Shown: positions 14,573 to 15,292, counted from the first letter of the stretch. The stretch is DNA of 64,000 bases from GCF_056712565.1 NZ_CM160072.1, one strand, 5' to 3'. Program-made: numbers and translations. The notes: generated from the letters alone by a model not told the origin.

Positions 14573-15292
14573 ATGCTGCAAGCTATAAAAAAAATCATAA
14601 TAATGACAATCGTAAATATTATATTTTTCTATTCCTTTCAATCGACTGCGGATGAAATGGTTTTAATAAAAAAATACGGGTTTGGGCTTGAGAGAGATAT
14701 CAAAGGAAGGCCATTAATTTATCCTATCGAAAATTATGATGAGTGTAAGAAAAAATGCAATCATATGAATTATATAGCGGATGTCAATGCTCAATTAGCT
14801 ATGAGTAAAAAAAATAACAGGATTTTTGCTAACATAACCTTTACTAACAATAGCTCTACCACGTATTTTTTTTCTAAATATTATCTACCTATGAAAGTAA
14901 AAGATGGAAAAGGAGATGAATATGATGCGATATGCAAAAAACCATTCAGAATCAACTCTGGGAATATCACGTTGGACTACTTAGGTGGTTCATGTCCTTT
15001 TGAAATTAATACGAATCCTGAACGGTGGAATACTATTAAACCAGGTCGTAGTTTTTTGTTGAGTATAACCTTAAATGATATGTATGCCTTTATACCAGGA
15101 GATAATTATTATTTTATAAAATCATCTGGCTATAAATTTGTTAATGACAAGTGGTTTACACTCAAATCAATCAATAATATTTTTCTTTATTTTTTAAATT
15201 TAAAAATTAATTGTGCTGATGATTTTTTTGATATTAATAATTTTACTACATGTAATAATTTGTTATTGGATGAAAAAAACACTTTTTATTAA
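14573..15292 (+). CDS. Candidate cognate immunity protein (periplasmic, signal-peptide-bearing)
   Basis: 239-aa ORF with N-terminal signal peptide (MLQAIKKIIIMTIVNIIFFYSFQSTA|DE), several Cys, very AT-rich; directly downstream of the candidate effector. Confidence 0.45.
   Translation: MLQAIKKIIIMTIVNIIFFYSFQSTADEMVLIKKYGFGLERDIKGRPLIYPIENYDECKKKCNHMNYIADVNAQLAMSKKNNRIFANITFTNNSSTTYFFSKYYLPMKVKDGKGDEYDAICKKPFRINSGNITLDYLGGSCPFEINTNPERWNTIKPGRSFLLSITLNDMYAFIPGDNYYFIKSSGYKFVNDKWFTLKSINNIFLYFLNLKINCADDFFDINNFTTCNNLLLDEKNTFY

Follow-up and report, generated by a model that had tools for sequence, protein, structure and literature searches.

What does the small, very AT-rich gene directly behind a putative toxin gene of Escherichia coli encode, and what is its origin? 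The question was raised by an open reading frame (ORF) of 239 codons in a stretch of 64,000 nucleotides from NZ_CM160072.1 (GCF_056712565.1), here called the window, in which it follows the genes for a PAAR protein, a VgrG protein and an M35-like peptidase of a type VI secretion system (T6SS) island. The original prediction, made from the sequence, had regarded the product as a Sec-exported periplasmic immunity protein to the adjacent effector. Synteny, orphan copies, signal peptides, paired cysteines and the published toxicity of the effector (PMC7904677) support this predicted role, and we consider it rather probable that the protein is the exported immunity partner of a VgrG-linked M35-like T6SS toxin and acts by a prodomain-like mechanism. 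Two results go beyond the prediction, which had missed both: the family is related to the propeptide of M35 zymogens, and the ORF is truncated by a frameshift. It had also missed that only four of the six cysteines are conserved.

A probably exported protein behind an M35-like peptidase gene

The predicted ORF (14573-15292) was borne out as an ATG-started, RefSeq-annotated gene on the plus strand, and RefSeq gives the same protein, WP_001447244.1, for the identical gene in APEC O1 and S88. At this composition about 0.085 stop codons per codon are expected, and by simple arithmetic the chance of 239 open codons is about 1e-9; the conserved family described below shows that the ORF is a real gene. 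Its guanine-plus-cytosine (GC) content was very low (27.4%) and, as predicted, below that of the effector gene (32.4%), compared to 56.7% for vgrG and 48.5% for the whole window. The predicted gap of about 50 bp was also found, with 52 bp to the effector stop, but it is partly an artefact, because a frameshift in the effector gene has widened it from the 23 bp of intact alleles.

The N-terminus of the product consists of MLQAIKK, with two lysines, 19 uncharged residues and then STA before DE. In the family, A or S occupied the -1 position of the aligned cleavage site in 35 of 37 members, the -3 position was small or aliphatic, the hydrophobic cores were 12-27 residues long, and the N-region was positively charged in most. 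A lipobox cysteine after the cleavage site was found in none of the aligned members. The classical signal peptide of the original prediction thus agreed with the sequence rules, by which alone the cleavage site was placed, and with family-wide conservation. Six cysteines are present in the product (C58, C62, C121, C141, C214 and C227). The last four were found in 34-36 of the 38 members and are lost in pairs, since P0058, P0078 and P0081 lack C121 and C141, and P0091 apparently lacks C214 and C227. Such paired conservation suggests two disulfides, which would in turn place the protein in an oxidising compartment outside the cytoplasm. The expectation that the cysteines could form disulfides is supported for these four, but not for C58 and C62 of the E. 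coli protein, which are not conserved.

The partner effector is M35-like (aspzincin-like) and is predicted from its motifs to be a zinc metallopeptidase. It carries HEMSH at residues 162-166, and its family has an invariant HExxH, D183 and a C-terminal NAYNIERYF, comparable to NADNHEYF of AsaP1, the M35 protease of Aeromonas salmonicida. When the profile of the effector family (A2) was searched against the PDB, it matched the catalytic domain of AsaP1 over residues 255-337 with an expectation value (E) of 1.4e-6; the match to the peptidyl-Lys metalloendopeptidase GfMEP of Grifola had an E of 1.2e-3. The Pfam family Aspzincin_M35 (PF14521) was recognised in 2 of 20 effector members at E <= 0.001 and in 15 of 20 at E <= 0.1. 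The effector family has a degenerate GTxDxxYG motif, and its short-type members have an invariant Asp nine residues past the second His, the same spacing as in the GTDD of AsaP1.

The 'M35-peptidase' of the O2:K1 strain BCE049 was found to inhibit the growth of E. coli only with a PelB leader, and the effector is therefore toxic only when it is directed to the periplasm (PMC7904677). The effector genes of BCE049 and the window differ only in the A-tract on which the C-terminal tail depends. This tract is A6 in the window (14506-14511) versus A7 in the intact genes of L014 and BCE049, and the window product of 253 aa ends in SVKKK, whereas the intact product of 263 aa ends in KKKIAELEKALLH, with its stop at window-equivalent 14547-14549. 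Since many effector homologues stop just past NAYNIERYFEI, the lost tail is probably dispensable. Within 1 kb of the BCE049 locus (L008, NZ_CP042250.1, 40248-41834), five homopolymer sites are unlike those of the window, and the immunity gene of this strain is annotated as fragments of 87 and 151 aa beside the intact effector gene. Either the BCE049 assembly is in error at these sites, or the strain is without intact immunity.

When 1.84 billion representatives were scanned exhaustively by HMMER, 88 matched the candidate immunity protein, and the full-length relatives were 24-39% identical and aligned to residue 273 of the intact form described below. The family consists of uncharacterised enterobacterial proteins of about 250-315 aa. 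Its matches in the AlphaFold database (AFDB) came from E. coli, Salmonella, Citrobacter, Enterobacter, Buttiauxella, Cronobacter and related genera, and all were named 'uncharacterized protein'. Neither the protein nor the family alignment gave a significant match when searched against Pfam, NCBIfam, PADLOC and the PDB sequences; the Ig-like domain DUF4352 of Pfam reached E 0.015-0.021 for the window protein and was found in 0 of 38 members at E <= 0.001. A word-index homologue search returned near-identical E. coli fragments only.

In nine independent contexts of the ten examined, the family gene lies directly 3' of a gene for an M35-like peptidase, whole or as a remnant, or for a VgrG-M35 fusion (the window, L003, L004, L005, L010, L014, L025, L026 and L029; Table 1). 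The exception, L028, is a contig of 1.8 kb. On the metagenomic contig L003, the tandem units are an array of retained immunity genes. For the family member of Cronobacter sakazakii pESA3, the annotated start omits the signal peptide; the true ATG overlaps the vgrG stop, and the corrected start gives the signal peptide MKMIILYMFLAFLTITGESMA before DE. At the same E. coli site in L009-L011, strain A3 and Nissle 1917, a different, shorter M35-like effector is accompanied by its own paralogue of 273 aa, and the window-type gene persists behind that pair as an orphan. Such close linkage, diversity of alleles, arrays of remnants and orphan copies are what toxin-immunity loci usually show, and the repeated location 3' of M35-like genes supports an immunity role.

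Likeness to the propeptide of M35 zymogens

With the alignment of 38 sequences, AlphaFold2 gave a model with a predicted local distance difference test score (pLDDT) of 84 and a predicted template modelling score of 0.76, compared to a pLDDT of 38 for the single sequence. The model consists of a beta-sandwich (residues ~35-190), helices (192-251) and terminal strands (252-265, pLDDT 93-97), and its low-confidence loop, residues 216-226, sits between C214 and C227. When it was compared with the PDB by Foldseek, all four matches at E <= 1e-3 were AsaP1 zymogen chains. Since the model is a sandwich and the effector profile already covers the catalytic part of AsaP1 (255-337), the structural match must be the N-terminal propeptide, and the beta-sandwich of the model was found to superpose on the solved M35 propeptide. 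The structural matches in AFDB also included Amphimedon proteins of 353-465 aa that are annotated with a lysine-specific metallo-endopeptidase domain. Stand-alone proteins of the Oxalobacteraceae (Massilia, Pseudoduganella and Rugamonas; 140-170 aa) were noticed in AFDB as well, and these resemble the sandwich core with an E of about 5e-8.

The family profile (A1) was then compared by hhalign with the propeptides of five M35 zymogens, two from L019 and one each from the A. caviae AsaP1 homologue, Pseudoalteromonas and Streptomyces. The propeptides beyond L019 were obtained by tblastn of plasmid records; the AsaP1-like contig L018 is full of frameshifts. The comparison gave a probability of 90.6% and an E of 1.3e-6, and it mapped residues 73-178 of the immunity protein onto residues 66-159 of the propeptide. 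Its score was 48.3, compared to 15.1 at most in 60 column-shuffled controls, and the E against a single propeptide sequence was 0.0016. The fold and the profile match together indicate that the immunity family is homologous to the prodomain of the protease family of its own partner. A correspondence between the C-terminal strand RSNQV..IDG and the last propeptide strand, SNAVTLWVDG, was also considered and was not supported, as the hhalign E was 0.039-0.21 and a different region was aligned.

These results suggest how the protein may act. The precursor would be exported by Sec and probably cut after Ala26, and the mature protein would fold in the periplasm with the disulfides C121-C141 and C214-C227, as the paired conservation of these residues suggests. 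Its sandwich core, for which fold and profile comparison show homology with the inhibitory propeptide of AsaP1 and other M35 zymogens, may bind the incoming effector one-to-one and, by analogy with a prodomain acting in cis, block the catalytic cleft of the effector. The propeptide of AsaP1 reportedly inhibits by occupying the active site, according to the structural paper on 2x3a-c. The pair would then resemble an M35 zymogen split in two genes, with the catalytic half fired by the T6SS and the prodomain-like half kept in the periplasm. As to the origin of the family, we lean slightly towards the idea that it is an M35 zymogen prodomain that became detached from the catalytic domain and acquired a separate signal peptide; toxin and antidote would then be the halves of an ancestral pro-enzyme.

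Frameshifted alleles and the rival explanations

Among the first homologues found were E. coli proteins of 273 aa (P0001) and 261 aa, whose agreement with the window product ends at residue 235. Up to this residue, the window ORF differs from the intact alleles by two substitutions, and it then ends with NTFY and a stop. The 273-aa form continues in the frame of a small ORF at 15213-15392 and stops at window-equivalent 15392. Distant relatives share its C-terminal motif, (I/V)RSNQV..IDG, with G266 nearly invariant, and because relatives of 24-39% identity also align to its last residue, the 273-aa form was taken as the intact one. Read from the sequence, the 239-aa window product is thus not the intact protein, and is truncated by a frameshift. 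The window has A7 and T5 at the site where intact alleles have A8 and T6 (Table 1).

The segment was present in 630 of the 20,395 records searched, among them 629 of 5,426 complete E. coli genomes, and the carriers of the gene include APEC O1, S88, CFT073 and Nissle 1917. Among the 630 E. coli records, 31 had exactly the window form, 137 had the A7/T6 form (IHE3034, CFT073 and Nissle 1917 among them), and 11 matched a synthetic A8/T6 sequence exactly. About half of a spread sample of 40 records had the in-frame length of 97 nt, and many further alleles carry single-nucleotide polymorphisms. Intact alleles were found in L012-L015.

The truncation raises the possibility that the gene of this strain is a decaying pseudogene that protects nothing, in a module of sequence type 95 (ST95) that is eroding by homopolymer slippage. 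We give this explanation somewhat less than an even chance. It holds that A8 became A7 first, which gave the 261-aa form of IHE3034, and that T6 then became T5, which gave the 239-aa form. IHE3034 is also of ST95 and has the identical effector protein, yet its immunity gene is A7/T6, so that the window form looks as if a gene already out of frame had slipped once more. Decay is favoured by these two successive indels, which did not restore the frame, by the family-wide conservation of the lost segment, confidently modelled as two strands, and by the likewise frameshifted tail of the effector. The gene is also rich in sites for such slips, with 11 A or T runs of at least six bases in 14573-15392, three of them of eight, and it is disrupted at different runs in different genomes (219 aa in UMN026, 261 aa in ED1a, a stub of 47 aa in O145:H28), while BCE049 and strain A3 carry it as split ORFs. 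Nevertheless, neither the signal peptide nor any part of the propeptide-like sandwich nor any of the four conserved cysteines has been lost from the window allele, and the catalytic motifs of the toxin are intact. The toxin and this allele occur together in 31 complete genomes, which would be costly if the cells were unprotected and the system fired. The allele is missing both terminal strands and a portion of the last helix; the M35 propeptides and the Massilia-type structural relatives of 140-170 aa do without the helical insert that follows the sandwich and precedes the C-terminus. Since the missing terminal strands are conserved, the protective capacity of the window allele is probably reduced or lost, and the chances that the 239-aa allele is impaired were judged to be about even.

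Two observations weigh against an exported immunity protein at this locus. The hydrophobic stretch at the N-terminus might stay uncleaved, as a signal anchor, and the window allele is without a conserved structural element beside an apparently intact toxin in the 31 complete genomes. Its persistence with the toxin may mean that the truncated protein works, that the module is silent, or that other protection exists. One more single-base loss in the window allele would restore the frame, minus one codon, and one might speculate that the A/T tracts make immunity variable through mutation or transcriptional slippage.

Homology to a zymogen prodomain would also be compatible with a protein that, in trans, helps the peptidase to fold or activates it instead of inhibiting it, because prodomains of secreted proteases are often intramolecular chaperones. 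We regard such a function as very unlikely. Loading of the effector takes place in the cytoplasm of the producing cell, where it would not meet a protein that carries an export signal, and the orphan copies are kept without an effector, which fits immunity instead. Moreover, the effector with the PelB leader was toxic although the downstream gene was not expressed along with it (PMC7904677). It seems more improbable still that the gene merely hitch-hikes in the AT-rich island and encodes an exported Ig-like protein without relation to the effector, for instance an envelope protein or one resembling an adhesin. The adjacency to M35-like genes repeats across alleles of 24-39% identity in several genera, the top structural match is the zymogen of the protease family of the partner, well clear of generic matches, and the profile match was significant against the shuffled controls. 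The exported, prodomain-like immunity protein thus remains our preferred explanation for the family.

The island and its relation to known systems

The region 13000-16200 is 100% identical to APEC O1, S88, ATCC 11775 and further genomes, and the window belongs to a chromosome of the E. coli B2/ST95 type. The PAAR-VgrG-effector island is flanked by ansP/yncG on one side and by yddH-nhoA-yddE-narVWYZ on the other (Table 1). Phage_GPD, Phage_base_V and Gp5_trimer_C of Pfam were found on a protein near-identical to the VgrG of the window, and the effector start overlaps the vgrG stop by 11 nt. The GC content of vgrG falls from 0.58 in the core to 0.50 over the last 456 nt (13314-13769), and the last ~35 residues of VgrG vary with the effector allele of the island (window versus L010). 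The differing tail and the GC drop suggest a recombination boundary within vgrG, with the tail matched to the cargo. A second copy of the immunity family was not found in the window. A terminator-like GC stem with a T-run was noticed by eye just past 15392, but the scan did not call one.

Two other genes near the island appear to be in pieces. The yncG gene (glutathione S-transferase family, 9920-10520) is present as two ORFs of 58 and 136 aa, and it bears a RefSeq frameshift mark in APEC O1 and S88. In 15468-16160, the ISAs1 transposase fragment is followed by an ORF of 71 aa (15691-15906), past which an out-of-frame sequence (SHQRQGVRHLLINEIEK) resembles, by eye, the remainder of a GNAT acetyltransferase; this region is thus probably another frameshifted gene.

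Table 1. Features of the window and gene orders around family members in other records
Feature	Record	Position	Strand	Basis or remark
PAAR spike-tip protein gene, first of the island	window	11061..11345	+	RefSeq 'type VI secretion system PAAR protein' WP_001127493.1
VgrG spike protein gene, 801 aa	window	11364..13769	+	ORF; RefSeq Vgr family
M35-like (aspzincin-like) effector gene, predicted zinc metallopeptidase, 253 aa	window	13759..14520	+	RefSeq 'peptidase M35' WP_000342574.1
Candidate immunity ORF, 239 aa	window	14573..15292	+	ATG start; RefSeq hypothetical protein WP_001447244.1
Signal sequence, 26 codons, MLQAIKKIIIMTIVNIIFFYSFQSTA	window	14573..14650	+	predicted cleavage before DE
Beta-sandwich core, residues ~35-190, with C121/C141	window	14675..15142	+	homologous to M35 zymogen propeptide
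Frameshift site: A7 (15273-15279), CAC, T5 (15283-15287)	window	15273..15287	+	A8 and T6 in intact alleles
Displaced 3' end, out of frame, encoding INQLWAIEDEKNSIYVTPDEISISIDGDNLKLPY	window	15288..15392	+	identical to C-terminus of 273-aa forms
ISAs1-family transposase remnant, bounding the island	window	15468..15611	+	RefSeq annotation mapped from L001 and L002
VgrG C-terminus, 246-aa HELSH peptidase, family member, PAAR	L005/L006			
VgrG, 265-aa HEMSH peptidase, family member	L026/L027			effector profile E 1.8e-67
257-aa HELSH peptidase overlapping family member	L029			effector profile E 6.1e-50
749-aa effector of a different type, 209-aa signal-peptide protein, two tandem units of M35-effector remnant and immunity gene	L003, metagenomic contig	253-6084		
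Effector remnant, family member	L004			
VgrG with M35-like peptidase fused C-terminally, then family member	L025, Cronobacter sakazakii pESA3, NC_009780.1	1418-5004		

Immunity proteins of secreted toxins usually have obscure origins and are usually unannotatable. Here, an uncharacterised family gains a probable role, a probable origin in the ancestral prodomain of the toxin, and a testable mechanism, occlusion of the active site. In the searchable literature on aspzincin or M35 T6SS effectors and on propeptide-like immunity, no account was found of this immunity family, or of a T6SS immunity protein with such an origin. If the proposed origin is true, zymogen prodomains would be a source of immunity proteins, and prodomain similarity could help to find the antidotes of other protease toxins. 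Furthermore, widely used reference strains hold frameshifted immunity alleles beside an apparently intact toxin gene, which bears on the activity of the module and on sibling killing in these lineages.

Among known systems, the VgrG2b C-ter/PA0261 pair (Tpe-Tpi) of P. aeruginosa, A. baylyi and S. arizonae likewise combines a T6SS zinc-metallopeptidase that acts in the periplasm with an exported immunity protein (PMC6899460, PMC12992299), and the S. arizonae orthologue of the pair has been validated (PMC12992299). PA0261 needs its signal peptide and DsbA (PMC6899460), and the cysteines are partially conserved among the homologues of this type of immunity protein (PMC6899460, PMC12992299). However, the VgrG2b-type toxin is thermolysin-like and has a Glu as additional zinc ligand, whereas the effector described here has the M35 signature with an invariant Asp, and no VgrG2b-derived chain was matched when the effector profile was searched against the PDB. 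The enterobacterial PA0261 homologues are lipoproteins, whereas the present family has no lipobox. The two immunity families are thus different, set apart by the lipobox and by the features of their partners, not by direct sequence comparison. The label 'M35' in PMC10673891 denotes the VgrG2b-type domain.

Within the present family, the pESA3 locus shows another arrangement. Its VgrG extension resembles the window effector by eye over the full length, from ALQAQKE..LLKRK..W to NAYNFERYFQ, but the pESA3 toxin is fused to the spike, whereas the window effector is encoded separately. The immunity homologue of pESA3 is shorter, at about 228 aa, and has neither the cysteine pairs nor the helical insert.

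In protease biology, it is an established idea that relatives of protease propeptides can occur as free-standing inhibitors, of which the family described here is reminiscent. Ipi of Bacillus subtilis (PDB 3isy) differs from the window protein in being cytoplasmic, in its length of about 117 residues and in being unlinked to secretion-system toxins, and the two are 11% identical. The closest relative was the M35 propeptide of pro-AsaP1 (Aeromonas salmonicida; PDB 2x3a, 2x3b and 2x3c), with profile similarity over about 94 columns, and like the immunity protein it goes with an M35-type catalytic domain. Identity to M35 propeptides is only 16-18%, and the inhibitory role of the immunity protein is a putative one. 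Compared with the five propeptides, the immunity protein has about 60 additional residues, with helices and a disulfide-closed loop, and two conserved cysteine pairs. The propeptide is fused upstream of its catalytic domain, whereas the immunity protein is encoded by a separate downstream gene with its own signal peptide. Since it is not covalently joined upstream of a catalytic domain, it is a homologue of the propeptide and not itself a propeptide.
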